From the IMG/VR virus record IMGVR_UViG_3300021138_002011, positions 32,001 through 96,000 of that record: a DNA stretch of 64,000 nt; one strand, 5' to 3'. The notes under the pieces were generated by a model. The model saw only the letters and a program-made list of their open reading frames with translations. It was not told the origin of the DNA and did no database searches. The position numbers and the translations under genes were made by a program. The number at the start of each line of letters is the position of its first letter. Positions within the stretch are counted from its first letter, which is position 1. Positions 2,458 to 20,012 of the stretch are shown piece after piece. This stretch comes from a virus.

Positions 2458-2548
2458 AATTCGTTCCTTAAAATTTCTTCATTGCACATAATAAAATGCA
2501 CCATTGCGTCTTGTGTTTGAAACACAGCATAACAGGTTACACATGTTG

Positions 2549-2602
2549 TCAGCCATTCAATGCAACCCAGATCTTCCTGTCATCTGCTCGCGATCCATTA
2601 AA
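2549..2602 (-). pseudogene. Orphan duplicate of the topoisomerase II large-subunit C-terminus
   Basis: Reads FNGSRADDRKIWVALNG*, colinear and equal in length to FNHNKADERKEWIKLHK* that ends ORF 3547-4275. Confidence 0.75.
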
Positions 2603-2618
2603 ACAACTAAATAAAAAT

Positions 2619-3563
2619 ATGAAAGAATTATCCAACTGTTTATCTTCTAATGATCAATACAATGAGCGTACTCGCATCTTCATTGAAAAAGCAATAGAGG
2701 TCCATCAAAATCTTTATTCATATGACACTACAGTTTATGTCCATAGTCATAAGAAGGTTGAAATAACCTGTCGTATCCATGGGGTATTTTCGCAAGTAGC
2801 GTCTAATCATATACAAGGGTTCGGTTGCCGAATGTGTCAATATGCTGCAAAAAGAATGAACTATACCAAATATAGAACTATAGATGAGATAAAATCTGTA
2901 ATCAACAAAAAGTTTCCAATCTTTTTAATTTTGGATATACAAGGTATCAATTTCAAATCAAAGGTGCATCTAGAATGTCCGCATCATGGAAAGTTTCAGT
3001 GCACAGTTTCTGCGATCCATCATAGCTCACGATTTTTGTGCAAACGATGTTCTCATGAATATGCGAGCAAAAACGCAACTATGAAGCAGGATGAGTTTAT
3101 TAAAAGATGTGTTGAGAAACATGGCGATACGTATGATTACTCAAAAACGGTATATCGCCATTCTCATAAAAAAGTCATTTTCATTTGTAGAAAACACGGT
3201 GAGTTTGAGCAATATGTTAGCGCCCATTTGACTGGGTCAGGCTGTCCTCAGTGTCGATACCGGGTTTCAAAGAACTCTACAAAATGGTTAGACAGCTTGA
3301 ACAATCAGAATATCAAATGTGAACAACACGTTGAAGGTAAATTTGTGGATGGACTTGACCCATCCACGAATACGATATACGAATTTTATGGTGATTACTG
3401 GCACGGAAATCCAAAAGTGTTTGATACTCAACTCTACAATAAAAGAACCAAATGTACGATGGGAGAACTCTACCAAAGAACTGTTGATCGTAGATCGTAC
3501 CTGGAATCAAAAGGATACACTGTGATAGAGATATGGGAATCTGACTTCATTTGTGTAACTTGA
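2619..3563 (+). CDS. Free-standing homing endonuclease: zinc-ribbon repeats plus a Vsr-like nuclease domain
   Basis: Repeated YDYSKTVY..SHKKV.I.C..HG.F.Q...H..G.GC..C units and C-terminal FVDG..YEFYGDYWHG..IEIWE. Start moved to ATG 2619, just after TAAATA at 2608-2613. Confidence 0.8.
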   Translation: MKELSNCLSSNDQYNERTRIFIEKAIEVHQNLYSYDTTVYVHSHKKVEITCRIHGVFSQVASNHIQGFGCRMCQYAAKRMNYTKYRTIDEIKSVINKKFPIFLILDIQGINFKSKVHLECPHHGKFQCTVSAIHHSSRFLCKRCSHEYASKNATMKQDEFIKRCVEKHGDTYDYSKTVYRHSHKKVIFICRKHGEFEQYVSAHLTGSGCPQCRYRVSKNSTKWLDSLNNQNIKCEQHVEGKFVDGLDPSTNTIYEFYGDYWHGNPKVFDTQLYNKRTKCTMGELYQRTVDRRSYLESKGYTVIEIWESDFICVT

Positions 3564-4275
3564 TCCACTCTTTTCTCTCATCAGCTTTGTTGTGATTAAA
3601 AATAAGGTCTAGCGCCTCTGACAATTTCCCATCATCCAACAAGGGCACTAGTTTTGGATTGGCAAGGCTATGTATCCAATCAGTTTCCTCAAGGCTACCA
3701 AGTCCTTTGGCACGTGTTGGTTTTGGTGCACCTTTCCAATCATCTGCATTATAAGTTTGATAGTCATCTGCATACCAATAATAACGCTTTTTACCTTTTT
3801 CTTGGATGATAAATGGAGTTTGAAAGACATAGAATACTGGAGGTAGTTTAGGATCGAACAGCTCGGGCCAATGAAGATAGAAAAAGTTTACCAGCAGTGC
3901 TGTAATGTTTGCGCCATCGGGATCTTGGTCTGCAGCTAGATATACATTGCCATAGCGCATGTCTTTTCGATTGGCTTTTTGTCCTAGACCTACTCCTACA
4001 GCAGTCATAATGTCTGCAATAATTTGATTATCAATGACAGTCTTGGGCAATTCTCCTCTAACATTAAGGATTTTACCTCGCAAAGGTAGTGCTCCGTGAA
4101 TTTCCGGATTTCTTACCGCAGCTACCATGCTCTTAGCACTATTGTGACTGAGTAGACCATTTGATAACACAAACGTTTCGTCATCTAATACTTGTATGTC
4201 GTACATGTTTGTTTTTCCTATCGGAGAGATATCTGCAATGTCTTCCATTAAAAACAAACTTTCATTAACATTCAT
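3547..4275 (-). CDS. Topoisomerase II large subunit, C-terminal fragment, with N-terminal split-intein IntC (45 aa, 4141-4275)
   Basis: MYDIQV..ETFVLSNGLLSHN|SAKS, then PLRGKILNV, DQDPDG (TOPRIM) and KGLGS. Confidence 0.92.
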   Translation of the reverse strand: MNVNESLFLMEDIADISPIGKTNMYDIQVLDDETFVLSNGLLSHNSAKSMVAAVRNPEIHGALPLRGKILNVRGELPKTVIDNQIIADIMTAVGVGLGQKANRKDMRYGNVYLAADQDPDGANITALLVNFFYLHWPELFDPKLPPVFYVFQTPFIIQEKGKKRYYWYADDYQTYNADDWKGAPKPTRAKGLGSLEETDWIHSLANPKLVPLLDDGKLSEALDLIFNHNKADERKEWIKLHK

Positions 4276-5573
4276 TTTTGTATAGCTCCGTTTATAATAT
4301 CAGTTATTGTTTTTTTATAGTCTTTTGGATCAAGTATTATTGATCCAAATGTATGTTCTTTTTTCTTCATATGATCTTTGTATTCTTGCGAATCGCCGCC
4401 GGCAATTTCAATATAAATATTCTGCGATACCATCCATATATCATAAAATAAGCTACTATTTGGATATTTTCCATTAATCATAAAATCATCAAATTCCGTT
4501 AACCCTAGAGAACATAAATAATCATAGATTCTAATCTCATTAAAACTCTTGAGAATCGTTCCTTTATCTGTGTATGAATAGCAGCTATAATTATTATGAA
4601 ATATTTTACGAAGATTTTTTCTATAATCTGGCAGTATTTCTCTAATATTGTTTTCAATTTCAACTACAGACACTCCAAAAAAATCTTTTGCAACTTCGTA
4701 AAATTTATAGAATTTCAATTCTTTTTCTAAATTGAACATATGATATTGATACGTTTGACAGTCCTCAACTATGTTAGCAACTCGTTCGATGAATGTATCA
4801 AACAATTCGATATTATATTCATAATCATCTCTTTTAATATGTGCTCGTAAGTAATACTCAGTTCCTTTAATTTTTCCGTATTTTTTGATATAAGAAATAA
4901 GGCTGATATTTGTGCCGTCTTTCCATTTGTTATATTTTAGTAACCCTTCTTGTGCTCCATATTTTTTTATGAAATTGTCTAAAGTGATCGCCTTTCTTTG
5001 CTGAACAGCATTCCACATCGATTCTCTGTTGCTATCGATATATCCTTGATAGCTACGAGAATAATTGGCTTTATTAATCCACGCATTACGATCTTTATCA
5101 TTCTCTTCGAACCATTTCTTTGAACGACTTTGCGATTTCTTATAATCATTTATATTTTGATGATTTTCTTTATAGAATGGGCTGCTATTTCGACCATGAA
5201 TTTTTTCTAATGCTGCTGTTTCATTGATTCCATATGCTTTTCTTACAAATTCTATACTGTTTTTGTTTAATTTCTTACTTTCACAATTGTTTTTTGCAAA
5301 ACAAAGGAACTGCGCAGTGTGTCTGCGTCTCACTCCAGTTGGTATGATACAACCGTTGTTCACATAATGATTTATACCGATAATATCATGATTAAAATCA
5401 CCGCACCATGCACATCTTAATTCATGATGTTTTATATCCCATATCTTAAGATAACTGAATATTGATATATTTTTTCTTGTCAATGTTGCTCGTAACCGAA
5501 TACTTCTATCATGTTCAGTATTCTTTGATCGAAAACTGATATTCAATTTTTCACATGTAAATTCACATAACAT
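4272..5573 (-). CDS. Putative homing endonuclease (PD-(D/E)xK-like C-terminus) in the topoisomerase split-intein gap
   Basis: AT-rich; KKYG repeats; C-terminal KSFNEIRIYDYL..FYDIW..IYIEIAG; stop overlaps the IntC start (ATGA). Confidence 0.7.
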   Translation of the reverse strand: MLCEFTCEKLNISFRSKNTEHDRSIRLRATLTRKNISIFSYLKIWDIKHHELRCAWCGDFNHDIIGINHYVNNGCIIPTGVRRRHTAQFLCFAKNNCESKKLNKNSIEFVRKAYGINETAALEKIHGRNSSPFYKENHQNINDYKKSQSRSKKWFEENDKDRNAWINKANYSRSYQGYIDSNRESMWNAVQQRKAITLDNFIKKYGAQEGLLKYNKWKDGTNISLISYIKKYGKIKGTEYYLRAHIKRDDYEYNIELFDTFIERVANIVEDCQTYQYHMFNLEKELKFYKFYEVAKDFFGVSVVEIENNIREILPDYRKNLRKIFHNNYSCYSYTDKGTILKSFNEIRIYDYLCSLGLTEFDDFMINGKYPNSSLFYDIWMVSQNIYIEIAGGDSQEYKDHMKKKEHTFGSIILDPKDYKKTITDIINGAIQK

Positions 5574-5582
5574 GGTATTATA

Positions 5583-5622
5583 TCGCCCTCTGTCATTATT
5601 GTTTATTTAGTATAGAGGGTGA
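5583..5622 (-). promoter_or_regulatory. TAAATA late-type promoter inside a hairpin that sequesters the endonuclease RBS
   Basis: Minus strand reads TCACCCTCT..CTAAATAAAC..AGAGGGCGA..ATG. Confidence 0.65.
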
Positions 5623-5625
5623 CAA

Positions 5626-7443
5626 TTATGATAAATTATGCGCTATTAATAAATGAATTTCAGAATCTAGATATTTGGTAGGAATTTTTTCAATAATACC
5701 AGAAGAAATATTTAACACTGAAAATAAATGGTTTTCAGAAATTATACATGTTTGATTGATTATACCATTCGTAAATGATACAGATTTATTAAACTTTTCA
5801 TCATCAAAGTCATCTACCCTTACAATTTCAAAAAACGAAGATTCCATGTTAATGATAGATGAGAGTAATTTATGTTGAGTTTTAACAATATCTTTGGCTT
5901 TCACCACTTCATACATATTGTTTTCAACATTGAAAACAGGCATTTTGTGATCTGTGCTTATTTTTATAACTTTACCAGTTGATGTTGTTATCGACACACC
6001 ATCAGTAATTTTTGCCTGCTTGTTACATATTGGTTTGATCGCGCCTGTGTGCGTTAAAACAAGATCTCCAAGATTTACGTCTTTTACTTTTTTATTGATA
6101 AATTCACCATCTTCGAAAATTGCGATTTGTGTGTCTTCAGCTATGCAGTCGCCTTCACAGATTAGAAGAATGCACTTGCTGCGATCCTTGCCGTTTGCAT
6201 CCAGCAGCTTTGGAACCTTATTTCTCATAAGTTTGCGATTGGCTTTGGCTATATCCGCATCGTCGCGTTTTTGGGTACGAGCTGCACAACGTTTGTATAT
6301 TGCGTCAACCCATGTCTTGTGTGTGCGAAGTATGCTCTTAAATGTAATTTCGTTTTCAAGGCTTGTTTTGATGTAGCGATCAACTTCGTCGTTGATCAAC
6401 CGAGTTTTGCTTTGGCTATCAAAGTTAGGCGCATGCATTGTGGTTGTATTATAAATTAATAATCCGTCGGCAATGTCGCTGCGATTGGGGGCTAACCCTC
6501 TGCGCTTGCTTTCTCGTTCCATAGCTTTAAGCATGCCGCTAAAGAATAATCTTTTAAACGTGTCAATGTGTTGACCTCCGTTAAAAGCTGGGATGTCATT
6601 TACAGTACTGTGTACAAACTCGCCTTCGATTCCAAATTCAGGAACCAAATAATATGTGCTGGCAAACTTATCTTCGTTAATGCTGATAATTACAGGATCA
6701 CTATCGGCAAACATGGTTTTGTCAATGCTTTTACCTACAGTGACCTTTTCGCCGTTGAATGTAAATCGAATTTTAGGATGGTTGGCGGCTACCTCAAATA
6801 TACGAGATTTGACAAAAGATAAAGGAATCTTTGCGTTTGGAAATACAGTTGGGCTAAGTGAAAAATTGATTTCTGTACCGGATTTCATTGCGCTGGAAAA
6901 AATGCGTGGTTCACTGATATCCAAATCGGGCATCAGTTCAGACCCTTCTTTAAAGGTCTGTTGAAATCGTTTGCCAGCTCTCTTGATATCAATGACGAAT
7001 TCTTTTGAGCAACTTACTACAACTGATGCTCCAATACCATTTGTTCCGCGTACTTCTTCCCTCTCACCAAAATTGCGACCAGCACGAGCTTGGGTAAGTG
7101 CCATAGTTGCTTTGTGCATTTTTTCATTTTCGTCCCAGTCAATTGGAATGCCTCGGCCATCGTCGGCAACACTAAAGGTTAATGTTTTTGGATCGTATGT
7201 TACATCAATTTTACTACCATGTCCGTGGCCTACAACTTCGTCAAGACTGTTATCAAATATTTCTCTAAAAGCACAGTATGCAGCAGGCGTCCATGCAACG
7301 TTTTCGGCTACTAGTTTCTTTCCGTCCCAATTAATTACAGTCTGTGTATGTAAATTACGGCTGCCAAGATACATTTCGGTACGCAGGCGATGATGCTGGG
7401 TATCGGTTAGTTTGACAATTTCTTCGCTTGATTTTTTAGCCAT
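5626..7443 (-). CDS. Topoisomerase II large subunit (gp39/GyrB-like), N-terminal fragment ending in split-intein IntN (from C1 at 6147)
   Basis: GHKL motifs EIFDNSLDE, DDGRGIP, GTNGIGAS and FDSQSK, then LICEGD|CIAEDTQI..V.LGDLVLTH..ISTDHKMPV. Confidence 0.93.
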   Translation of the reverse strand: MAKKSSEEIVKLTDTQHHRLRTEMYLGSRNLHTQTVINWDGKKLVAENVAWTPAAYCAFREIFDNSLDEVVGHGHGSKIDVTYDPKTLTFSVADDGRGIPIDWDENEKMHKATMALTQARAGRNFGEREEVRGTNGIGASVVVSCSKEFVIDIKRAGKRFQQTFKEGSELMPDLDISEPRIFSSAMKSGTEINFSLSPTVFPNAKIPLSFVKSRIFEVAANHPKIRFTFNGEKVTVGKSIDKTMFADSDPVIISINEDKFASTYYLVPEFGIEGEFVHSTVNDIPAFNGGQHIDTFKRLFFSGMLKAMERESKRRGLAPNRSDIADGLLIYNTTTMHAPNFDSQSKTRLINDEVDRYIKTSLENEITFKSILRTHKTWVDAIYKRCAARTQKRDDADIAKANRKLMRNKVPKLLDANGKDRSKCILLICEGDCIAEDTQIAIFEDGEFINKKVKDVNLGDLVLTHTGAIKPICNKQAKITDGVSITTSTGKVIKISTDHKMPVFNVENNMYEVVKAKDIVKTQHKLLSSIINMESSFFEIVRVDDFDDEKFNKSVSFTNGIINQTCIISENHLFSVLNISSGIIEKIPTKYLDSEIHLLIAHNLS

Positions 7444-7994: not shown

Positions 7995-8333
7995 TGGACC
8001 CGTTATTTAACAGGGTGGAGCCCATACCCTGGACGCTAAACCTCAGGCAGCAATTTTCATTGCTTCAACAGGTGTATTGTCGTTAGCTGCGTGAAATACG
8101 TCAACTATGTTTTTTGAACTAATTATGGGTCGTATCTTACCCAACACCTACTTCAACCCTTACTGCTATCAGTCTATCCTATTTCACCCCCACAAGTAAG
8201 CCTACCCATCTCAACCTGTCTTTGCAGTACAGGGTGCCGATTGGTTACGGCTGAGAGTAGGCTTACTGGTGGAGGTGCGGTGGTGCTGCCCCTCCGGTCC
8301 TGCCTAACTTATTTAATTGCTATCAACAGTGTC
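7995..8333 (-). ncRNA. ssrA: Two-piece (circularly permuted) tmRNA
   Basis: The acceptor piece ends CACCTCC-A-CCA at 8267. An intervening hairpin (GTAAGCCTAC..GTAGGCTTAC) follows. The coding piece starts GGGGGTGAAATAGGATAGAC at 8191, giving a 7-bp acceptor stem with G3:U70. The tag frame reads ..AANDNTPVEAMKIAA* (stop 8043-8045). Outer ends are approximate. Confidence 0.93.
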
Positions 8334-8338
8334 AACCG

Positions 8339-8346
8339 TATTTATA
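8339..8346 (-). promoter_or_regulatory. T4-type late promoter TATAAATA upstream of the tmRNA
   Basis: Exact TATAAATA just upstream of the acceptor piece. Confidence 0.65.
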
Positions 8347-12065: not shown

Positions 12066-12329
12066 TTACTTTGCCGCGAAATGTGCCGCCAGCTCCGTAT
12101 AACCACCAATATGCTTTCCGTCCAACCAGATCTGCGGAACCGTTTTAGCAGTCGGATACTTTTCCAATAGGTCAGCTTTTGTCACATATTGCTGGTTGGC
12201 AGCAGCCTGCTTTTCTCCTAGACCTGTGCTGACGATGTATTCACGATAGGGAATACCTTTTTCAGTTAGCAACGCTTTTGCCTTGACACAGTAAGGACAG
12301 TCCAATTTAGAGTAGATTTCTGCTTGCAT
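12066..12329 (-). CDS. nrdC: Glutaredoxin
   Basis: CPYC and TVPQIWLDGKHIGGYTEL; located next to nrdAB. Confidence 0.9.
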   Translation of the reverse strand: MQAEIYSKLDCPYCVKAKALLTEKGIPYREYIVSTGLGEKQAAANQQYVTKADLLEKYPTAKTVPQIWLDGKHIGGYTELAAHFAAK

Positions 12330-12339
12330 TTTTGCTCCT

Positions 12340-13029
12340 TTATCTATCGATGTGCTTGGTTTGTATCAACCTTCCGTCAATGGTTTTGGCAATCCAAACA
12401 CTGTTAGGTGGTGGAACTGCGCCTGCATGTTCGTAATGCCACGCCCATTGAGAATGGTAGTTCACGGTTGGTGTTTTTATATGTAATCGAGATACGCTTG
12501 GAATAGCAATCGATGCCCAAAAATGCCTGTCGCTCCACAGCCTATGTTCCGGTGCTGTTATCCAATTGGTCAACTGATGGAGGATTGATTTCGTGATGAA
12601 CAGACAATTTGTGTCACAAAACGTGCTACCGTCGCTTTCAAAATCATCCACGTACAAAAATCGTCCTGCTGTGGTGCAAATATTGCGGGTGGCCGTAACA
12701 ACATCGTGCGTCCCAATGGCTGCTGCCATTGTTTCAAGATGATTTGCAAGATAGGTGTTATCGGCATCCAAGAATGCTACTGCATCAAAATTCCTGCTGA
12801 ACGCGGATATTGCCGCCAGCGCCCTAGGTGTTGCTCCAGCGTCATCATGACACCTTGGCAGCACCATGTGTTCGACATCGGGCAATGTTCTAACCATAGG
12901 ATGCGGCTCGCCGTCGGCTATCATCATATGCACATGATTCTTGTAGGTTTGACCCTGTACAGAGTTGTGACACCTTTTCAGGGTATCGGCGCTTTCTCTA
13001 TGGTATGGTGTGATAACTGCTATTTTCAT
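12340..13029 (-). CDS. Glycosyltransferase family 2-like protein
   Basis: IAVITPY, IADG and FLDADN (DxD). Confidence 0.8.
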   Translation of the reverse strand: MKIAVITPYHRESADTLKRCHNSVQGQTYKNHVHMMIADGEPHPMVRTLPDVEHMVLPRCHDDAGATPRALAAISAFSRNFDAVAFLDADNTYLANHLETMAAAIGTHDVVTATRNICTTAGRFLYVDDFESDGSTFCDTNCLFITKSILHQLTNWITAPEHRLWSDRHFWASIAIPSVSRLHIKTPTVNYHSQWAWHYEHAGAVPPPNSVWIAKTIDGRLIQTKHIDR

Positions 13030-14129
13030 CAGATCTGTGGTAGCTCGGAATAATCTATTACCTCCGACATAATTCCTATTACATAGTTAGTGCTTTCGGT
13101 TTCCTGGAGAGCTGATTGCTTGTTGCTGGTGTTGCTGTGCTTATTGAACCAAGGTATTGGTGTGGTCTTTGGAGCAGGCAATGTGTACTTTATACCGATT
13201 TCCTTTAGTGCAGCAGCAGCAGTAAAATCCATAAAGTCCTTGAGTATTTGAGAATTAAGTCCGATTACAGGACCAAATTTGAACAAATAATCTGCCCAGT
13301 CTTTTTCTTCTTGTATAACATCCATGTAGATTTGATAAACTTCGGCTGTGCATTCTTGTTTGATTTCTGCAAAACGCGAGTCATCTTTTGCACACTGATT
13401 AATGAGGTATGCAGTCCAGTCTCTATGCAACAGCTCGTCTTGCAAAATAAGACTGATGATGTTACCGTTGCCAATGAAAATTTTGTTCTCTACCATTGCA
13501 AGACTGGTTGCAAACGATACCATAAATCGCAGTGCTTCGAGTGCATAGCTAGTATGTAATGCTAACCATATCGACTTAACATGGTCCTTTTCATCAACGT
13601 CAACGCCAAGTTCTTTTTTGCAATTAATGACGTGCAGGTCGTCGTAGTATTTGCCAATCTGTGCAGCCATTTCAATGATTGGTGCTGTCTCGTGAATTTT
13701 ATTAAATTCATCCTTTGGTACATTATAGATGTTTCTAATGATATGACTATAGCTTTTTGAATGTAGATTTGTTTCAAAGAAGCTCCAGTTGCTAACCAAC
13801 GACTCAAGTTCTGGAATTGAAATAACAGGACTAAATATCTGTGCCGGTGCACGACCTTGCAAACTGTCTAATGCTGTTTGTCGAAGTAGATTGCTGGTAA
13901 AAATATGTCTAACAGTTTCGCTGGCATTTTTGAAATCGCCAGCGTCTTTGGTTAGGCTGATTTCTTCAGGAATCCAAAAAAATCCTCTTGCGTTCTCTTC
14001 GAACCTGGCTATCTTTGGATATCTAAATTCTTCAAATCGTTGAACTGTAACTGGCCCGGCAGGATCTAAAAACATTTTACGGGCGAGATAGTCTGTTTTT
14101 TTAGATAAATCGTATTGTGCGATCGCCAT
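13029..14129 (-). CDS. nrdB: Class Ia ribonucleotide reductase beta subunit
   Basis: FFWIPEEISL, LDSLQGR, ETNLHSKSY, EALRFMVSF, DELLH and QETESTNY. Confidence 0.95.
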   Translation of the reverse strand: MAIAQYDLSKKTDYLARKMFLDPAGPVTVQRFEEFRYPKIARFEENARGFFWIPEEISLTKDAGDFKNASETVRHIFTSNLLRQTALDSLQGRAPAQIFSPVISIPELESLVSNWSFFETNLHSKSYSHIIRNIYNVPKDEFNKIHETAPIIEMAAQIGKYYDDLHVINCKKELGVDVDEKDHVKSIWLALHTSYALEALRFMVSFATSLAMVENKIFIGNGNIISLILQDELLHRDWTAYLINQCAKDDSRFAEIKQECTAEVYQIYMDVIQEEKDWADYLFKFGPVIGLNSQILKDFMDFTAAAALKEIGIKYTLPAPKTTPIPWFNKHSNTSNKQSALQETESTNYVIGIMSEVIDYSELPQI

Positions 14130-14168
14130 GATTATATCTCTTTCTTAACTGTTATTTTGTTATTATTA

Positions 14169-15257
14169 TTATAAAACGCAAGATTCGCAATGCTCTTCGT
14201 CATCGTAATTGATAGATTCAATCATAGCTGGAGTATTTTCTGCATCCATTTTGCTACCTTGTTTTTCAACAAGTGAGTAATATATGGTTTTCAATCCCCA
14301 TACGTGTGCCTGCATTAGGTTCTTCGCAATTAATGTAGTCGGCACTTTACGATCTGGAAAGTGTTTTGGTGAATAGAAGGTATTGGTACTGATAGATTGA
14401 TCTATATACGCTGCTAATACAGCAGCAGTTTTTAAGTAGCTATCACAGTTTTTTTGATCCCACAGCAATTGATACTTACTTTTTAGCTTTTGATATTCTG
14501 GCACAACTTGTATAAATGACCCAGCTTTTGATTCTTTAACACTAATCAAACTCATCGGTATTTCAATTCCGTTTGTTGAGTTAATGACAACACTTGAACT
14601 TTCAACTGGTGCGATTGCCATTAGTGTTGAATTACGAACACCATATTGTTTCATATTAGCACGAAGATTTTCCCAATCTAACTCTGGTGTAAAATCTGCA
14701 AGTTCATTAACACCAGTTGCACGCAATTCCCAAGGGAACACTCCTTGTCCGTAACGTGTTTGACCACTATGCAAACATGCGCCGCGTTCTTTTGCTAATT
14801 CGACGGTGGCTTCTGTAAGATAGAATGCTTGATGTTCCATCCAAGATTTAACTTCTTGTAGAGCGTCTTTTTCACCATATTTGAAGTTGCGTTTTGCATG
14901 CCAATATGCAAGGTTTGTGACACCAATTCCAAGTGGTTGAATCTCATCATTACTAAGCTTGCTTTGTATGCTTAGGAAATCTTGATAATCAAGTATATTG
15001 CATAAGCTACGTTGTAGAATTCTGCAAGCACGTCGCATGTCTTCTGGGTTTCTAAATGCGCCCCAATTGATCGACCCCAGAGTACACAACGATATGCGAC
15101 CGGTATCATCGTCAAGTCGCTTAAATGATTTGGTCGGCAAAAGTATCTCGCAATTATGGACTAATATATTATTAGCAAAAAAGGAGTGTGTTCTATCTAC
15201 TGTGATATCATATACCGCTTCTGGTTTCGATATTTTTATTTTTCTAATTTTAATCAT
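14169..15257 (-). CDS. nrdA: NrdA fragment 3 (C-terminal) with split-intein IntC (35 aa, 15153-15257)
   Basis: VYDITV..HSFFANNILVHN|CEILLP, ISLCTL, APVESSS, DQSISTN, KTIYY and terminal CESCVL. Confidence 0.93.
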   Translation of the reverse strand: MIKIRKIKISKPEAVYDITVDRTHSFFANNILVHNCEILLPTKSFKRLDDDTGRISLCTLGSINWGAFRNPEDMRRACRILQRSLCNILDYQDFLSIQSKLSNDEIQPLGIGVTNLAYWHAKRNFKYGEKDALQEVKSWMEHQAFYLTEATVELAKERGACLHSGQTRYGQGVFPWELRATGVNELADFTPELDWENLRANMKQYGVRNSTLMAIAPVESSSVVINSTNGIEIPMSLISVKESKAGSFIQVVPEYQKLKSKYQLLWDQKNCDSYLKTAAVLAAYIDQSISTNTFYSPKHFPDRKVPTTLIAKNLMQAHVWGLKTIYYSLVEKQGSKMDAENTPAMIESINYDDEEHCESCVL

Positions 15258-16222
15258 AATATACGTCCATGTTTATATGTTATATTTTCTTTCAAGAATT
15301 GATCTAATTGGTCTGCATTAAGTCTAACATTCTTAACTCCGTTTGTTACCCATCTATATATCGATGATGCAGATGACAGCTTCTTCTTTTGCTCATCACC
15401 CCTATAGTAAGGATTATAACTTACTACTGCTAATCCTGCATTAATAAGTGTATTATTCACTTCTGATACTAGTTCTTCACGACCATTAGTAAATCTATTT
15501 TTTATAATCGTAACACTAACATTCAACACATTCTTCAATGCATCATCCATCTCTTTACGAAGTATATAATTACCATACCTGTTATTTGTAATCACATAGT
15601 TTACAATAACATCTATAACCATCTGCCTAGTAATATCAGGTTTAGCATTTGAGTTATTCACACCAATTGATCTTGCCGACTGTAACTTAGACTGCTCTTT
15701 AGTATTCTTACGACCCGCGTTCCAATGTACCCATTCCTTTGATATTACTTTCTCGTGATTTGTTGGTACCCTGCCTATCTTCTCACCAGTGATAGAATCT
15801 TTTACCAACATAGTATTGACCATAGACTCGCGAATACCTTCTATAGCTAACTTACGATATTTCTCATATTTTTTTGAGCGTGATAAGTTATACCATTCTT
15901 CCCGCGGATGCGATGACTTGTCTAATAACGTAAAGAACCATACTAACGATTTTTTCGCTGACTGTTCATATCGTGTCCCACTGTAAATTTTTGTTAATAG
16001 CAAATGCGACAAGAAATGCTCGCGAATTGTTAATAATACCAAATTGTTCTTATCATTACAATCCCCATCTAAGTTTCCGATTGGGCCTGTTCTACCTCTG
16101 CGATTTTTAAACATAAAGGTAGGGATGATATGATGCAACTCATAATAAATCTTTCCACCTTTCACTCTATTTTCTTCTTTAGCACGATTTATAATATTTT
16201 GATAAATTTTTCTATAGTTCAT
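15254..16222 (-). CDS. HNH homing endonuclease in the second nrdA gap
   Basis: MNYRKIY..YYELHHIIP..NLVLLTIREHFLSHLLL. Confidence 0.85.
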   Translation of the reverse strand: MNYRKIYQNIINRAKEENRVKGGKIYYELHHIIPTFMFKNRRGRTGPIGNLDGDCNDKNNLVLLTIREHFLSHLLLTKIYSGTRYEQSAKKSLVWFFTLLDKSSHPREEWYNLSRSKKYEKYRKLAIEGIRESMVNTMLVKDSITGEKIGRVPTNHEKVISKEWVHWNAGRKNTKEQSKLQSARSIGVNNSNAKPDITRQMVIDVIVNYVITNNRYGNYILRKEMDDALKNVLNVSVTIIKNRFTNGREELVSEVNNTLINAGLAVVSYNPYYRGDEQKKKLSSASSIYRWVTNGVKNVRLNADQLDQFLKENITYKHGRIL

Positions 16223-16279
16223 AGTGTTATTTCCTTTCTATTATTTATGTAAGTAATAGTATTTCTGTAAATAACGCTA
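16222..16279 (-). promoter_or_regulatory. TAAATA promoter within an inverted repeat that covers the HNH start region
   Basis: TAGCGTTATTT/AAATAACACTA arms with CATAAATA between them. Confidence 0.55.
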
Positions 16280-17422
16280 CTATTTTATCAGTAACTCGTC
16301 AGTCTCCTCTAAATCTTGTGCTTCTACCCATCCTCTGTTAGTGGTGAATATCTTGTGATCAACCGTGCAACGTATGATTTGCCCCGATTCTGTTTCAATC
16401 TCTACTAATTCATCTACCTTTTTGGTTAGTATAGCATTTGAAATATTCTCCCATACTATTTTTTTGCCGTCCCACGACTTCGCTAATACAGTATCGTCAT
16501 AATACCCGTTAGTCCAGCTTTCTGTGAAGGTAGCAATATTTGTCTTAAGAATTTGTCCTGCATACTGTATCTCTATTTCTGTCTCACCTGTTAAACAACA
16601 AAGATTGCTTTGATATATGGTATGATATTCTGGATCAAACGGGCCTTGATTCTGAACGTTGTCAATAAACACAAGATAGATACGTCCAGTATCTGTGCGT
16701 TCTTTAAGTATGCCACCTTTGAACACTTCTTCTGCACTCATAGTTTTTGTTCTTAGGTCTGTGCGTTTTTCATATTGAACATACAGTTCTTCAAACAGTG
16801 CAGTGTTTTTATAAAACGCTTCATAGAGATCTGGAACTTCGTTTGGATCAAAGAATGTAATGTTTTCTTGGTTCTTAAATCTACGCCAGAAAAATGCATT
16901 TAGAACTACACCATAGTCCATGTGACGAACTCTAGTCTCTTCTGTACCTTGGTTATTTTTCAACACAATTAGATCATCAAACTGGTGATGCCATAATGGG
17001 TAGAACACTGTTGCACTATTGTGGGCCAATAATAATTTGTCTGGTTCCATCCCTGCATAATAATTTTCATGTTCATCAATGCTAAAATCGGCATATTGAG
17101 TTGATACGTTAGGAGAAGTTACTTCTTTAACTTTATCTTTTTTGTTGATAACAGACACTACATAATCTCCTGTAGTAATATCACCACCCTTTACATATTT
17201 GATTTTTCCAAATTCATTGATTGCAGTAGGATGTGTGTCGCTCGTAATTAATTTAGCATCCGATGTTGATGTAATTTTTACTTGGTGTTCATGTGGAACT
17301 ATCGGTCTCATGACATTTAATACTTTACGATATACATCCGTTTGTGTTTCAATATCACAAGATAGTACCAAATCTCCCAATTTTACTTCATCAATTTTAA
17401 CTCTGTTCGATAAAAATTTCAT
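16280..17422 (-). CDS. nrdA: NrdA fragment 2 (middle): long IntC (135 aa, 17018-17422), extein, then IntN (105 aa, from 16597)
   Basis: VKIDEVKLGDLVLS..TSDTHP..LLAHN|SATVFYPLWH..ERTDTGRIY..QSNLC|CLTGET..CTVDHKIFT. Confidence 0.92.
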   Translation of the reverse strand: MKFLSNRVKIDEVKLGDLVLSCDIETQTDVYRKVLNVMRPIVPHEHQVKITSTSDAKLITSDTHPTAINEFGKIKYVKGGDITTGDYVVSVINKKDKVKEVTSPNVSTQYADFSIDEHENYYAGMEPDKLLLAHNSATVFYPLWHHQFDDLIVLKNNQGTEETRVRHMDYGVVLNAFFWRRFKNQENITFFDPNEVPDLYEAFYKNTALFEELYVQYEKRTDLRTKTMSAEEVFKGGILKERTDTGRIYLVFIDNVQNQGPFDPEYHTIYQSNLCCLTGETEIEIQYAGQILKTNIATFTESWTNGYYDDTVLAKSWDGKKIVWENISNAILTKKVDELVEIETESGQIIRCTVDHKIFTTNRGWVEAQDLEETDELLIK

Positions 17423-18326
17423 TTATTCTGTCCTTCAAGTCGGATGATATTTCTTTGTCGTCTAATATTGTTTTATAACCAAGAACCTCTTCGATTGCAA
17501 CAATACAATATTGACCTTTTCTGCAATTTTCTTTTTTTGGTATTAGTTGTAAATTTTGATAACTTCCTATAATTAATGGATGTATCTTGTTGACAAATCC
17601 GCCATATTTGGAAAATTTGTGATCAACAGCGTATCCATTCTTACCATAAATTATACCTAATTTGTTTTTTTCCGGATCGATGATATTTCCATATACAGCA
17701 ATCGATATTTTGGTAGCTGTTCTTACTGCATCACAATAACTGTCGTAATTATCATAACTAAATTTCTTCAAAACAGGCCCGTGTTCTGTCCGACTATTTT
17801 TAAACCAACGAATTAATTTTGCCTCGTGTTTAACAGTAGATGCCCGCGATAAAAAAGTTTCTTGACGATTTTTAATTTTAGATTGGTATTCATTCCATTT
17901 GTCTTTGCCGATTGTTTCTCCAAACCTCGTTATATATGATTCCAATGAAGGGAGACGACCTATATCAGACCTATATTGTTGTGCTCGTATTTCAGCATCT
18001 TCTAACGAATACCCTTTAGATACCCAGTGATTTGAATTTGACGGGGTTGTTTTTTGTTTTTTTCGTGTTTTTCGTTTTTCATTAATTAAAAGAACTGCTT
18101 CTTCTTCAGTTTTACCCCGAGATATATAATATTCAATTGACCACGGGCTATTTTTTGCCCTATCTTTTCGAAGGTTTTTGTCGATTTTGTTAAACTCTTC
18201 GCCACACTTGAATTCTTTGAGATACTCATTTAAATTCATTCTGTTATGTCTCATAGTCAGATGTCGTTGTAACTGGCTCACGTTAGCCGAGCAAATTTTG
18301 CAAATATGCATCTCTTTCATCATCAC
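17397..18326 (-). CDS. Putative HNH-type homing endonuclease in the first nrdA gap
   Basis: N-terminal CKIC..HLTMRH finger, YITRFG repeat, and AVDHKFS..NLQLIPKKENCRKG. Confidence 0.75.
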   Translation of the reverse strand: MMMKEMHICKICSANVSQLQRHLTMRHNRMNLNEYLKEFKCGEEFNKIDKNLRKDRAKNSPWSIEYYISRGKTEEEAVLLINEKRKTRKKQKTTPSNSNHWVSKGYSLEDAEIRAQQYRSDIGRLPSLESYITRFGETIGKDKWNEYQSKIKNRQETFLSRASTVKHEAKLIRWFKNSRTEHGPVLKKFSYDNYDSYCDAVRTATKISIAVYGNIIDPEKNKLGIIYGKNGYAVDHKFSKYGGFVNKIHPLIIGSYQNLQLIPKKENCRKGQYCIVAIEEVLGYKTILDDKEISSDLKDRINEIFIEQS

Positions 18327-19401
18327 TTCCCATATAGGCTAAAATAGTTAGCACATCAGTTATATTTATCACTTTGTCATCTTTTTTAATTATGTCACCT
18401 TGATAATAATTTTTGCCGTTAAATTCAAATCCAGTTAATTTGTCTACATATGAGTCTATGTGTACACATGCGTTCCTGATTCCGCCCTGACTGCATGATC
18501 TTAGATCGCCAAACCATTTCTTTAAAAATGGAATCATACCAGTGTGCATGATTTCACCGCCTCTGATAGGACTTCCCAATGGTCGCAATCTGCCAATTTC
18601 CAACCCAATGCCAGCACGTTTGCTAGCATATTTTGCCATCATTTCTCCTGATGCAAAGATACTGTCTAGGTCATCGTCACTACGTATAAGCACACACGAA
18701 CTAAACTGTTTGGTTGGTGTCCCTAGTCCTGCTAATACAGGCGTGGCAAGAGTAAACAAGCCCTCTGAAGCAGACTGATAGTATTCTTTGATGTATCGCA
18801 TACGAGCATTATTTGGTTCCTCTTTATGAAAAACCGTAGCCGCAGCTATCATATACCGTATTTGTGGTGTTTCATAAATATTTTTCGTTGCACGATTTCG
18901 AACTAGATACTTTTCGATCAACTGCTCAATTGCTGCGTAACTATACTGTTCATCTTTTTCATGATCCAGCATTTCATTCATTTTGTTCCAGTCATCTTCA
19001 GTATACCAATCAAGAAGATCTGCAGTGTATAATCCCGTATCTACATTTTTTTTAACAACTGAATATAGATGAGGAACTTCATACGTACCGTATACGTCTT
19101 TTCGTAGCATACTTAAACGTTGCTTTCCTGCAACGTACTGATAGTTGGTATGCCCAATTCCTGGGTTGATGTCTACGTCAATTAAATCAACTATAGCTCG
19201 CAGTGTTATACCATCAATTTCAACAGTTGATATTCCGTTATAAAAATGCGGCTGCGCTTTGATTTCGATCATTGATTGGCTAACGTCTGCTATGTTTTTG
19301 CAAACTTTGGCAATTTGTGCTTGCCATTTACCAATGTTAAGTAACTCTCGGTGTCCGTCGCGCTTGGTGACGTAAATTTCTCCCTGTCTTTGGGCGGCCA
19401 T
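18283..19401 (-). CDS. nrdA: NrdA fragment 1 (ATP cone to GGIRNA) ending in a short IntN (C1 at 18468)
   Basis: VTKRDG ATP cone, ETPQ, LATP, QFSSCVLI and CSQGGIRNA|CVHIDSYV. Confidence 0.92.
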   Translation of the reverse strand: MAAQRQGEIYVTKRDGHRELLNIGKWQAQIAKVCKNIADVSQSMIEIKAQPHFYNGISTVEIDGITLRAIVDLIDVDINPGIGHTNYQYVAGKQRLSMLRKDVYGTYEVPHLYSVVKKNVDTGLYTADLLDWYTEDDWNKMNEMLDHEKDEQYSYAAIEQLIEKYLVRNRATKNIYETPQIRYMIAAATVFHKEEPNNARMRYIKEYYQSASEGLFTLATPVLAGLGTPTKQFSSCVLIRSDDDLDSIFASGEMMAKYASKRAGIGLEIGRLRPLGSPIRGGEIMHTGMIPFLKKWFGDLRSCSQGGIRNACVHIDSYVDKLTGFEFNGKNYYQGDIIKKDDKVINITDVLTILAYMGSDDERDAYLQNLLG

Positions 19402-19487
19402 GTTTTGTCCTCTTTCAAATATTTTGATAACTGTTATGAGCAGCTAAGCTCGAGAGCTGAGTATTTACGCGTCATAAAGTCGCATCG

Positions 19488-20012
19488 TTATTTTTTTATT
19501 ATATTACCAACCGATGCAATAGTCCTAGATTTTAATAGGAAATGATGGTTGTCTTGGTAATCATATATCTGCTGTATGTTGTATGTTTTTGTAACTGTTT
19601 GATTATCAATTACTTTTTGATACTCTAAATTTAATAACCATCTGTTATCAACACTCAAAATAATTCTCTGTATTGCGCGAATTTGATCGCTTACAAGAAT
19701 AAGTTGTAGTCTATTGCCGATCCATCTAGCATCTTGTGACAACAGCAACGTATAAAACATTCCTACTGCAACGGCACTTTCGTCAAATATGTTATTGTGT
19801 ATAAAAGTCCAAGGATCGGGCCAAGATTTCGGCTCATCCCAGTCAAGTGTTCTCACTGATATTGGAGCATTACTCCAAAACTGTGTAACTAATTCCAAAT
19901 GTTGTTTATCCGACAAACCATCTGTTAAATTTTTGCGTAATTCTTTCCAACAACTCATAAAAGATTTAGAATTATCATTCATAAACTTAATATGTTCCAG
20001 AAAATCTTCCAT
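19488..20012 (-). CDS. Hypothetical protein
   Basis: 174-aa ORF with RBS. Confidence 0.7.
   Translation of the reverse strand: MEDFLEHIKFMNDNSKSFMSCWKELRKNLTDGLSDKQHLELVTQFWSNAPISVRTLDWDEPKSWPDPWTFIHNNIFDESAVAVGMFYTLLLSQDARWIGNRLQLILVSDQIRAIQRIILSVDNRWLLNLEYQKVIDNQTVTKTYNIQQIYDYQDNHHFLLKSRTIASVGNIIKK

Follow-up and report, generated by a model that had tools for sequence, protein, structure and literature searches.

Fractured genes, in which an endonuclease gene lies between the halves of a split intein, were described by Dassa, London, Stoddard, Schueler-Furman and Pietrokovski in 2009 and include NrdA-1 to NrdA-7 and NrdJ-1/2 (PMC2677866); NrdJ-1 is also counted among the "exceptionally fast" trans-splicers (PMC7090010). 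The loci presented by Dassa et al. possess one split each, at the canonical site. We found no natural three-piece gene with two split inteins in the literature, and the supplements of that paper may list more loci. In the window analyzed here (the whole stretch of 64,000 nucleotides), by comparison, nrdA, the gene for the large subunit of ribonucleotide reductase, is cut by two different cassettes, and the middle open reading frame (ORF) therefore has the order IntC-extein-IntN. The NrdA inteins of Dassa et al. precede the thiyl Cys, whereas this NrdA carries a NrdJ-type intein after it, at the insertion point reported there for NrdJ, one residue past the thiyl Cys. The other intein is split next to block A rather than at the canonical site.

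Splits directly after block A are known from the natural atypical split intein PolB16 OarG, with an IntN of 15 aa (PMC10189870), and from engineered S1 splits such as Ssp DnaB with its 11-residue IN (cited in PMC2874743). With such a split the C-fragment retains nearly all of the HINT fold, blocks B, F and G included. Intein 1 of the window shares this position and differs from these examples in its IntN of 61 residues, including an extension of about 45 residues, in its Cys1/Ser+1 residues and in its NrdA host. The layout of the middle ORF is that used in engineered orthogonal assemblies, where IntC-target-IntN constructs serve one-pot ligation of multiple fragments (PMC7090010). When the halves of a single intein are placed in this layout the product is cyclized (SICLOPPS, PMC3762901), whereas the window combines halves of two unrelated inteins in a natural gene. 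A split nrdA that functions by another route is found in Aeromonas phage Aeh1 (NrdA-a/MobE/NrdA-b), where, as in the window, a mobile endonuclease gene cuts nrdA and separately translated parts reassemble; the Aeh1 parts retain oppositely charged tails and are not spliced (PMC3045599), while the window junctions carry complete intein motifs. Charged tails like those of Aeh1 occur at a further nrdA break in four related loci (L005, L012, L085 and L086) and at none in the window.

Three pieces of one NrdA

Region 14169-19401 of the window, on freshwater phage DNA, contains five close-set minus-strand ORFs in the ORF listing. In order, these are NrdA part 1 with IntN1, the endonuclease-like HE1, IntC1-extein-IntN2, the HNH gene HE2, and IntC2 with NrdA part 3; downstream lie nrdB and a glutaredoxin gene, both intact. 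The features are as follows.

18283-19401, minus: p1, 372 aa (stop codon 18283-18285)
18469-19401, minus: NrdA extein 1, p1 residues 1-311 (Pfam and E. coli R1 alignment, E 7.9e-78)
18286-18468, minus: predicted IntN1, 61 aa, p1 residues 312-372 (block A CVHIDSYVDKLT; alignment, conservation, complex model)
17397-18326, minus: HE1, 309 aa, free-standing endonuclease-like gene between the intein 1 halves (phrog_5104 "unknown function", E 4.8e-7)
16280-17422, minus: p2, 380 aa (stop codon 16280-16282)
17018-17422, minus: predicted IntC1, 135 aa, p2 residues 1-135 (PT-HINT; alignment with contiguous and split relatives)
16598-17017, minus: NrdA extein 2, 140 aa, p2 residues 136-275 (E. coli R1 alignment, E 3.5e-38)
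16283-16597, minus: predicted IntN2, 105 aa, p2 residues 276-380 (Intein_splicing, E 2.4e-12; 8ubs match)
15254-16222, minus: HE2, 322 aa, free-standing HNH homing endonuclease gene between the intein 2 halves (phrog_655 "homing endonuclease", E 2.8e-25)
14169-15257, minus: p3, 362 aa (stop codon 14169-14171)
15153-15257, minus: predicted IntC2, 35 aa, p3 residues 1-35 (..VYDITVDRTHSFFANNILVHN; +1 Cys; Intein_splicing)
14172-15152, minus: NrdA extein 3, p3 residues 36-362 (E. coli R1 alignment, E 1.5e-68)
13029-14129, minus: nrdB, small subunit, directly downstream (Ribonuc_red_sm, E 8.2e-41)

The original prediction of a three-piece NrdA, with a middle ORF of IntC-extein-IntN topology, is confirmed by the ORFs, the Pfam domains and the alignments to E. 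coli R1, and its lengths for IntC1 and IntN2 are those listed above. Extein 1 (ending ..SCSQGGIRNA) comprises the ATP-cone, the all-alpha domain and the barrel start, with Pfam matches to ATP-cone, Ribonuc_red_lgN and the first 79 positions of Ribonuc_red_lgC. Extein 2, running from SATVFYP.. to ..QSNLC, takes up positions 79-213 of the latter profile at p2 residues 136-276 (E 1.2e-28), and extein 3, beginning CEILLPTK.., matches the remainder (E 2.8e-50). In alignments to E. coli (Ec) R1 structures, p1 residues 9-312 correspond to Ec 5-301, p2 residues 135-276 to Ec 300-440 and p3 residues 36-341 to Ec 440-743, so that the exteins tile E. coli NrdA with no gap or overlap. All catalytic residues are present, and their equivalences follow from these alignments: p1 C236 (in QFSSC) is Cys225, p2 N273 and C275 are Asn437 and Cys439, and p3 E37 and C58 are Glu441 and Cys462, with the C-terminal CxxC in ..HCESCVL. 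The residue placement proposed earlier thus holds, with Cys225 in piece 1, Cys439 closing the extein of piece 2, and Glu441, Cys462 and the C-terminal Cys pair in piece 3.

Contigs of two further runs (X4 and X5) matched the stretch in 30 of 30 bins at at least 99% likeness, and pieces of the p1, p2 and p3 types are also present in independent contigs; the layout is neither a chance finding nor an assembly artifact. Among 80 related loci, the window layout of two split inteins flanking this middle extein is present only in L010, whose contig ends inside HE1.

One could suppose that this nrdA is a dispensable gene decaying under selfish elements while the phage uses the host reductase; the nrdA genes of Campylobacter phages, with several inteins, have been read as possibly degenerating by Dwivedi et al. 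(PMC3653736), and the nrdA genes of relatives bear up to four or more interruptions. We regard decay as improbable here, as the exteins contain no frameshifts or stops, their catalytic residues are complete, the neighboring nrdB and glutaredoxin genes are intact, and the allele was found again at at least 99% likeness in further runs. The exteins are under purifying selection, as are the intein halves: compared with uninterrupted alleles, extein pN is 0.06-0.13 against a saturated pS of 0.75-0.93. For extein 2, which is 92-96% identical in amino acids to the loci that match this extein only (L023-L084), pN is 0.06 and pS 0.79-0.93.

The two split inteins

IntC1 is a near-complete HINT domain with block B (..TSDTHP..), block F (..YADFSIDEHENYYAG..) and block G (..LLLAHN), followed by Ser at +1. 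Pfam PT-HINT matches p2 residues 8-124 at profile positions 9-123 of 137 (E 5.9e-9), and from about residue 12 onward IntC1 can be aligned with relatives both contiguous and split, which puts the split immediately behind block A, at about position 12 in the contiguous relatives. Its best PDB match is the MJ0781 intein (E 0.02), and we found no close solved or tested relative of intein 1. IntN1 is not minimal, as judged from its sequence: only the first 12-16 residues are part of the HINT fold, and about 45 conserved extra residues come after them, forming a beta segment and a helix. Between the window and L021, 41 of 61 IntN1 residues are invariant and the tail is conserved; in the library search this tail was found only behind NrdA GGxRxx|. 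The dN/dS ratio is 0.15 for IntN1, 0.29 for its extension alone and 0.10-0.12 for IntC1, with synonymous sites near saturation.

Binding of the two halves is supported by a complex model of IntC1 (p2 residues 1-142) with p1 residues 305-372, which scored 0.88 in three of three runs while the best of three controls scored 0.00; 58 of 80 solved complexes attain the mark applied, as do 2 of 110 mismatched pairs. At least 93% of contacts agreed between runs, with partner pLDDT of at least 85, and the modeled contacts to IntC1 involve p1 residues 310-327 and 351-367. Resemblance to solved split-intein complexes may account for part of this result.

Intein 1 has relatives in other phage nrdA genes. 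In Acinetobacter phage KARL-1 (gp058/gp059/gp060, NC_049441), a nrdA HINT domain is split after 12 residues, with gp058 ending in CLTPDTKVEILV and a 299 aa ORF between the intein halves; identity between this intein and p2 residues 8-276 is about 34%. The KARL-1 site (..KS|CSQGG..) lies eight codons upstream of window site 1, the IntN extension is lacking, nrdA is in two pieces only, and the record annotates no intein. NrdA of Shewanella phage Thanatos-2 contains a contiguous relative. A further relative carries a contiguous intein at window site 1 itself (..RGG|C..SHN|S..); about 33 residues are inserted in it at precisely the intein 1 split point, and they show no significant similarity to the IntN1 extension (E 0.23). 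The same nrdA has a split NrdJ-1-type intein at ..TNLC|C.., with ORFs between its halves, and a third, contiguous intein further on; it is in two pieces because only the second intein is split.

Intein 2 is by sequence a canonically split intein of the NrdJ-1 type. IntN2 begins CLTGETE.., carries block B as ..CTVDHKIF.., matches Intein_splicing at p2 residues 296-378, and aligns over residues 18-104 with the NrdJ-1 intein structure 8ubs (E 4.1e-10), its C-terminal end falling at the same split position. IntC2 matches Intein_splicing at p3 residues 3-35 (profile positions 122-155 of 155, E 6.9e-6, under the curated cut-off). NrdJ-1 (8ubs/9omb) is inserted at the same point with respect to the radical Cys and has the same split end as IntN2 (105 residues), but its host is a class II NrdJ rather than a class I NrdA and the sequences are only partly alike. 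Also in distinction to NrdJ-1, the +1 residue of intein 2 is Cys, which is native in the clade (NLCCE in 65 of 80 loci). The intein is contiguous, at 144 aa, in four relatives (L005, L006, L007 and L014) and split in seven loci. These findings bear out the expectation that one intein would be atypically and the other canonically split.

Over their first 16 residues IntN1 and IntN2 have Cys1 alone in common, and IntC1 already contains blocks B, F and G while block B is also present in IntN2. The original proposal that inteins 1 and 2 must be orthogonal is reasonable, and their reactions would then proceed without interference.

Splice junctions and proposed assembly

The four boundaries are ..GGIRNA|CVHIDSYV.. 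(IntN1), ..LLLAHN|SATVFYP (IntC1), ..QSNLC|CLTGETE.. (IntN2) and ..ILVHN|CEILLPTK (IntC2). Intein 1 possesses C1, the block B TxxH (TSDTH), AHN and S+1, and intein 2 possesses C1, TVDH, VHN and C+1; these splicing residues are also kept in diverged copies (L010, L021, P0004, P0005, P0007 and P0009). The junction peptides named in the original prediction, GGIRNASATVFYP and QSNLCCEILLP, occur verbatim in uninterrupted alleles at 66 and 65 of 80 related IMG/VR loci, respectively. As the predicted ligation strings are those of native alleles, splicing would restore the native protein exactly, and we take this match as the strongest sequence-based support for the prediction.

Junction 1 might instead not be spliced, IntN1 and IntC1 merely docking two polypeptides in the manner of the Aeh1 tails while junction 2 alone is spliced. 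Split NrdA of Aeh1 is active with its tails retained (PMC3045599), intein 1 is without a tested relative and its extended 61-residue IntN is unlike tested atypical split inteins, and the conserved extension and confidently modeled interface would also be compatible with docking. We consider this unlikely, given that C1, TxxH, HN and Ser+1 all persist in copies of only 43-75% identity, that pN over the first 16 IntN1 codons is 0.026 against a pS of 0.86, and that an unspliced HINT domain totaling 196 residues would interrupt the conserved barrel stretch GGxRxxA|ATxFYP.

We therefore favor splicing at both junctions: since the ends of the pieces bear corresponding halves of two unrelated split inteins, the three translated pieces are very probably ligated into one enzyme. 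The C-terminal IntN1 of piece 1 would insert its short block-A strand into the near-complete HINT domain that opens piece 2, the extension possibly aiding this binding, and the C-terminal IntN2 of piece 2 would pair with the N-terminal IntC2 of piece 3. Trans-splicing would then proceed as two independent reactions (Cys1/Ser+1 and Cys1/Cys+1) that excise the four intein halves and join the exteins as ..GGIRNA-SATVFYP.. and ..QSNLC-CEILLP.., yielding a NrdA of 778 residues that would partner the adjacent NrdB.

Endonuclease genes and cassette mobility

Both splits are fractured-gene cassettes of the known kind; the two endonuclease genes between the intein halves were absent from the text of the original prediction. 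HE1 overlaps the end of p1 by 44 nt and the start of p2 by 26 nt, and the HE2 stop overlaps the p3 start by 4 nt (ATGA); in the genes of Dassa et al. the endonuclease 3' end overlaps the downstream intein part by 6-69 bp (PMC2677866).

Endonuclease genes of phage ribonucleotide reductases often reside within group I introns (PMC3653736). A self-splicing intron enclosing each endonuclease gene, or recoding, might accordingly connect the halves no later than during translation, and the inteins would then be contiguous and splice in cis. This is very improbable. A scan of 13900-19700 on both strands returned no Rfam family at E<=1, and hence no recognizable intron that would join the halves at the RNA level; the endonuclease ORFs overlap their flanking ORFs; and p2 and p3 have start codons of their own, p2 with an AAGGA motif 9 nt before its ATG and p3 with the ATGA overlap. 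Since IntC1 begins where block A ends, there is no missing HINT segment with which removal of HE1 could bring the IntN1 tail into frame. Taken together, the locus is likely a class Ia phage nrdA in three separately translated pieces, produced by two independent cassettes and joined by trans-splicing.

HE1 has no Pfam family at E<=0.01; it resembles HNH or Endonuclease VII clusters only weakly (scores <0.9) and, by eye, has a ..VDHKFS..N..N.. motif; its labeling as a homing endonuclease thus relies on its position, this motif and its behavior across loci. Its DNA is 99.5-99.9% identical in L005, L008, L012 and L013, and decayed in L021 and L025, where an internal deletion in HE1 leaves both intein halves intact, as expected if the phage needs the splicing and not the endonuclease. 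The endonucleases would serve cassette spread rather than the enzyme. At the DNA level, phages that share only 77-88% identity in the flanking nrdA sequence share 98-100% across the IntN1-endonuclease-IntC1 cassette, a contrast indicative of recent homing of cassette 1. The C-terminal half of HE2 (residues 168-322) recurs in L085 and L086 fused behind another N-terminal half, and this gene interrupts nrdA a few codons further downstream.

An nrdA gene in three pieces

Five ORFs occupy positions 14169-19401 of the window in a tight head-to-tail array on the minus strand, three of them encoding consecutive pieces of NrdA (p1, p2 and p3) and two (HE1 and HE2) being the endonuclease genes between the pieces.

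Features of the nrdA region
18283-19401, minus strand: p1, 372 aa
17397-18326, minus strand: HE1, 309 aa
16280-17422, minus strand: p2, 380 aa
15254-16222, minus strand: HE2, 322 aa
14169-15257, minus strand: p3, 362 aa
13029-14129: nrdB, downstream of p3
12066-12329: glutaredoxin-like ORF, with nrdB downstream of p3

In p1, Pfam places an ATP-cone, an all-alpha domain and the opening 79 positions of the RNR barrel. The p2 matches are a HINT domain over residues 8-124, then barrel positions 79-213 over 136-276, and lastly an intein splicing domain over 296-378; p3 has the last 34 positions of the intein-splicing profile (residues 3-35), followed by the remaining barrel. Residues 9-312 of p1, 135-276 of p2 and 36-341 of p3 align to 5-301, 300-440 and 440-743 of the solved E. 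coli R1, respectively, and because these ranges are consecutive the three exteins tile one NrdA with neither gap nor overlap. The boundaries (marked here by a slash) read ..GGIRNA/CVHIDSYV.. from the p1 extein into IntN1, ..LLLAHN/SATVFYP.. from IntC1 into the p2 extein, ..QSNLC/CLTGETE.. from the p2 extein into IntN2, and ..ILVHN/CEILLPTK.. from IntC2 into the p3 extein, where IntN1 and IntC1 (61 and 135 aa) are the halves of intein 1 and IntN2 and IntC2 (105 and 35 aa) those of intein 2. The predicted spliced NrdA would have 311+140+327 = 778 residues. It is of class Ia, with an ATP-cone, an adjoining NrdB, equivalents of Cys225, Asn437, Cys439, Glu441 and Cys462, and a C-terminal Cys pair.

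The original prediction, made without database searches, was right in all details that could be checked. It had read the middle piece as a 135-aa IntC, an extein and a 105-aa IntN, an arrangement borne out by the boundaries and by Pfam. The E. coli R1 alignments agree with it in placing the Cys225 equivalent in p1 and the Cys439 equivalent at the extreme end of the p2 extein, where they also put that of Asn437; the equivalents of Glu441 and Cys462 and the C-terminal CxxC (tail ..HCESCVL) are likewise in p3. Its claim that one intein is split atypically and the other canonically is upheld by the HINT alignments and by a match to the NrdJ-1 structure.

An IMG/VR scan with p2 found 383 related stretches, and junctions were counted in the best 80 of these 383 loci, most of which carry the same nrdA uninterrupted at both sites. 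At site 1 the exact string GGIRNASATVFYP is present in 66/80, the end of IntC1 stands there instead in 11, and three are left unclassified by the two strings. At site 2, QSNLCCEILLP is present in 65 of the 80, QSNLCLEILLP in two (L011 and L012), QSNLCAEIDLP in two (L021 and L025), and an intein in 11. The junction peptides forecast for the spliced product are thus the native strings of uninterrupted alleles, so that excising both inteins would yield the exact one-piece protein of sister phages; the +1 nucleophile Cys of intein 2 is itself a native residue of the clade. Class 1 inteins have Cys or Ser at position 1, TxxH in block B, a terminal His-Asn, and Cys, Ser or Thr at +1, and both sets are complete here (C312, TSDTH, AHN and S136 in intein 1; C276, TVDH, VHN and C36 in intein 2). 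The splicing residues of both inteins are retained in diverged copies.

Two trans-splicing reactions are in our judgment the best explanation of the three-piece NrdA, and very probably the correct one: excision of inteins 1 and 2 would join the three exteins into a single 778-residue protein. An essential enzyme seems to rely here on two different split inteins, both of which act on a single middle fragment. Decay of the nrdA gene is contradicted by selection data, as comparison of the exteins with uninterrupted alleles gives a pN of 0.06-0.13 at saturated synonymous sites, which argues that the gene is not decaying. Joining of the pieces at the RNA level is unlikely, given that Rfam returned no match at E<=1 on either strand and that p2 and p3 possess their own translation starts. 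There is also a slim chance that junction 1 is held together by non-covalent docking, as in the excerpted account of Aeh1 (PMC3045599), but docking would leave unexplained the retention of all catalytic residues in copies down to 43% identity. Where Aeh1-type junctions have tails that lack intein motifs and stay in the mature protein, both window junctions have full intein motifs.

The split of intein 1

Nearly all of the HINT domain lies in IntC1 (block B TSDTH, block F and ..AHN/S; Pfam PT-HINT positions 9-123 of 137). Alignment to split inteins and to the contiguous ones of Shewanella phage Thanatos-2 and Vibrio phage SUMAE puts the start of IntC1 near residue 12 of the fold, whose completion requires only CVHIDSYVDKLT of IntN1. 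The alignments, the PT-HINT match and the model contacts agree in placing block A alone in the fold part of IntN1 and blocks B, F and G in IntC1, making this an S1-type split. The N-fragments of described atypically split inteins range from ~11 to ~37 residues. IntN1, at 61 residues, is longer than this and includes, after block A, a conserved extension of ~45 residues. A reading in which IntN1 and IntC1 would each carry a copy of the same HINT strands was abandoned once they were aligned with contiguous and split relatives.

Among four copies, including that of L021, whose p1 is 49% identical overall, 41 of the 61 columns of IntN1 are invariant, and the dN/dS values, obtained at nearly saturated synonymous sites, are 0.15 for IntN1 as a whole and 0.29 for its extension by itself. 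When 1.84 billion representatives were searched, the IntN1 tail turned up in six proteins only. It follows immediately after NrdA ..SQGG[IV]Rxx in P0004, P0005, P0007 and P0009, and P0006, also matched, is a context-free fragment of 73 residues. P0008, an unrelated repeat protein matching residues 17-41 only, was rejected as a relative. A word-based search with the extension returned three clusters, every one the same tail, and a Pfam search at E<=10 gave a chance-level match only (T2SSB, E 0.014). Homology to the insert of a Campylobacter phage contiguous intein was unsupported (E 0.23), position alone agreeing.

A modeled complex of p2 residues 1-142 with p1 residues 305-372 reached 0.88 in 3/3 runs (three controls: at most 0.00), a mark attained by 58/80 solved complexes and 2/110 mismatched pairs; contact agreement between the runs was at least 93% and partner pLDDT at least 85. 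In the model, p1 310-327 pairs with IntC1 1-13 and 17-20 and adjoins 133-136 (the HN/S end), while helix residues 351-367 of p1 contact the IntC1 surface. As solved split-intein complexes exist, the model supports, without showing, likeness to them and the predicted binding of IntN1 to IntC1. We suggest only tentatively that the extension may be a dedicated specificity and affinity clamp, letting several short-N split inteins coexist in one cell without cross-reaction. If it is, it would explain the tolerance of this clade for nrdA in three to five pieces, and nature would already have mutually orthogonal block-A-split inteins suited to one-pot multi-fragment ligation.

In Acinetobacter phage KARL-1, a published T4-like phage, nrdA is interrupted by an intein split in the manner of intein 1, with a 12-residue IntN and a 299-aa ORF between the halves, at a site eight codons upstream of site 1 (L003 2210-5929). 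Its gp058 ends CLTPDTKVEILV, gp060 opens with the remaining HINT domain, and gp059 separates the two halves; the record carries no intein annotation. AceL-TerL, GOS-TerL and VidaL are further names in the intein literature. A natural block-A-proximal split with a 15-aa IntN appears in the excerpted report of PolB16 OarG (PMC10189870).

Intein 2, the endonuclease genes and mobility

IntN2 and the solved NrdJ-1 intein (8ubs) align at E 4.1e-10 up to chain position 106, with the same end. The NrdJ-1 type is split after ~105 residues with an IntC of ~35-40, and intein 2 combines sequence relation to NrdJ-1 with a split after 105 aa and a 35-aa IntC2. Carvajal-Vallejos 2012 is said to be a study of NrdJ-1. 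The insertion point lies one residue past the thiyl-radical Cys (p2 C275 = E. coli C439), with p3 C36 at the position of E. coli L440; a boundary one residue earlier would remove a residue from the conserved NLCxE spacing. According to the excerpted text of Dassa et al. (PMC2677866), the split inteins of NrdA immediately precede the thiyl Cys and those of NrdJ come one residue past it; the window intein occupies the NrdJ-type point inside an NrdA. Campylobacter phage IBB_35 has the same intein type at the same point, likewise split. Among the best 80 of 383 loci, this type is contiguous (144 aa) in L005, L006, L007 and L014 and split, in some cases together with an endonuclease gene and in others without one, in L010 and L015-L020.

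At both junctions a conserved enzyme gene is interrupted, the intein halves are fused to the flanking coding parts, and the halves are separated by a free-standing homing endonuclease gene, the evidence being weaker for HE1 than for HE2; the locus is a 'fractured gene' of the kind described by Dassa et al. 2009 (PMC2677866). HE2 belongs to PHROG phrog_655, 'homing endonuclease' (E 2.8e-25), and for HE1 there was no significant family match in Pfam, PDB sequences or the protein atlas, though the cassette containing HE1 is 98-100% identical across genomes that have diverged. The endonuclease 3' ends overlap the downstream piece at 17397-17422 (26 nt, HE1/p2) and 15254-15257 (4 nt, HE2/p3); overlaps with the downstream intein part of 6-69 bp are given in the excerpted source (PMC2677866).

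The C-terminal half of HE2 (168-322) is 62-65% identical to parts of L085 (2665-3429) and L086 (2716-3480), where it is joined to another N-terminal half and the gene interrupts nrdA a few codons farther downstream, with no intein at the break. Such a pattern is consistent with a DNA-binding module that targets this nrdA stretch and suggests that the module has been shuffled between nuclease types. By eye, the N-terminal domain of the L085/L086 endonucleases looks GIY-YIG-like. Ahead of HE2 there is an ATAAATA element, and the 57-nt spacer there (16223-16279, minus strand) contains ACATAAATAA, close to the T4-type late promoter TATAAATA, and then AAAGGAA. Such promoter-like elements before fracturing endonuclease genes are described in the excerpts of Dassa et al. 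(PMC2677866). A promoter/terminator scan found a number of sites not above that in shuffled sequences.

Cassette 1 (IntN1-HE1-IntC1, 1451 nt) has 98.3-100% DNA identity to L005, L008, L012 and L013, whereas the flanking extein DNA of the same loci is only 77-88% identical; a near-identical cassette in diverged flanks is a signature of recent lateral spread. In L021 and L025 the middle of HE1 is lost and both intein halves are intact. Contigs from two further freshwater runs, which may share their campaigns with the possible source runs, cover 30/30 bins of the stretch at >=99% likeness, and run X8 leaves bins 16794-18368 without cover. In a 2020 lake run the cassette-1 region has a 1600-nt insertion at codon 303, the site of a further split intein in L005-type loci.

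Relatives, wider comparison and other interrupted genes

No named phage genome was matched by megablast of the stretch, and the nearest genome record, G001 (a 30-kb fragment), has no RNR match. In this phage clade, nrdA is a hot spot for insertions of this kind, and L005 and L006 have NrdA divided among four pieces.

Pieces of NrdA in L005 and L006
Piece 1: N part of NrdA ending in a 19-residue IntN
Piece 2: 204-aa ORF with the IntC of piece 1's intein, SQGGIRNA and IntN1
Piece 3: IntC1, extein, contiguous intein 2 and extein, with a tail at the end
Piece 4: C part of NrdA, with another tail at the start

The second of these is an adapter that is almost all intein, its extein being just eight residues (SQGGIRNA or SQGGVRGG) between the IntC of a block-A-split intein and IntN1. 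It is present in 5/80 loci (L005, at 4526-5140, L006, L008, L009 and L013; best 80 of 383). Adapter proteins P0001, whose genomic context is known from IMG/VR loci alone, P0005 and P0007 have 204-213 aa, the latter two forming two diverged clusters. Cross-reaction of an adapter's own halves would yield a cyclic octapeptide. The exact layout of the window, a single middle extein flanked by two split inteins, recurs only in L010 among the best 80 of 383 loci, and there the window-type middle piece is accompanied by at least one further split downstream.

A further nrdA break, at ..LDDEGE/IALCTL.. or ..KKLD/..GRIALCTL.., lacks intein motifs and carries tails on either side, with an endonuclease gene separating the parts, resembling the Aeh1 genes-in-pieces arrangement; of the L085/L086 tails, one is basic and one acidic.

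Loci with the intein-free nrdA break
L005: 6001-7443 and 8567-9535
L012: 6001-7008
L085
L086

Split inteins are the main tool for scarless protein joining, and few sets free of cross-reaction exist, most of them engineered. Should the reactions proceed as predicted, the locus would offer orthogonal pairs ready for use, among them a short-N type suited to semi-synthesis, and its relatives go further, with adapters holding only eight extein residues. The homing cycle is visible at nrdA in uninterrupted genes, contiguous inteins, and inteins split with a live or a decayed endonuclease gene. Particular to this locus are the atypical split with its conserved IntN extension, junction sequences proven directly by uninterrupted alleles, and a near-identical cassette in diverged genomes. 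No natural three-piece gene joined by two different split inteins was found in the literature searched, mostly main texts outside subscription journals. Within that literature the IntC-target-IntN layout is described, in the excerpts of PMC7090010, for engineered assemblies only, whereas the window gene is natural. The same excerpts (Pinto et al., PMC7090010) report cross-reactions mostly with atypically split inteins having one short-peptide part, which makes orthogonality a real question for the window locus.

The topoisomerase II large subunit of the window phage is also in two ORFs, at 3547-7443 on the minus strand.

Features of the topoisomerase region
5626-7443, minus strand: part 1, ending ..ICEGD/CIAEDTQ.. 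plus a ~170-residue tail
4272-5573, minus strand: ORF between the parts, 433 aa
3547-4275, minus strand: part 2, ..LLSHN/SAK.., then the Toprim domain

These ORFs have Pfam GyrB, HATPase and Toprim domains and no HINT family at E<=0.001, and the break looks like a third split intein of this phage. A two-piece tmRNA has been proposed at 7995-8346; ARAGORN found zero tRNA or tmRNA genes in the whole window. Between the topoisomerase genes, on the opposite (plus) strand at 2496-3563, a 355-aa ORF with treble-clef zinc-finger matches (DUF4379, DUF723) may be another free-standing endonuclease.
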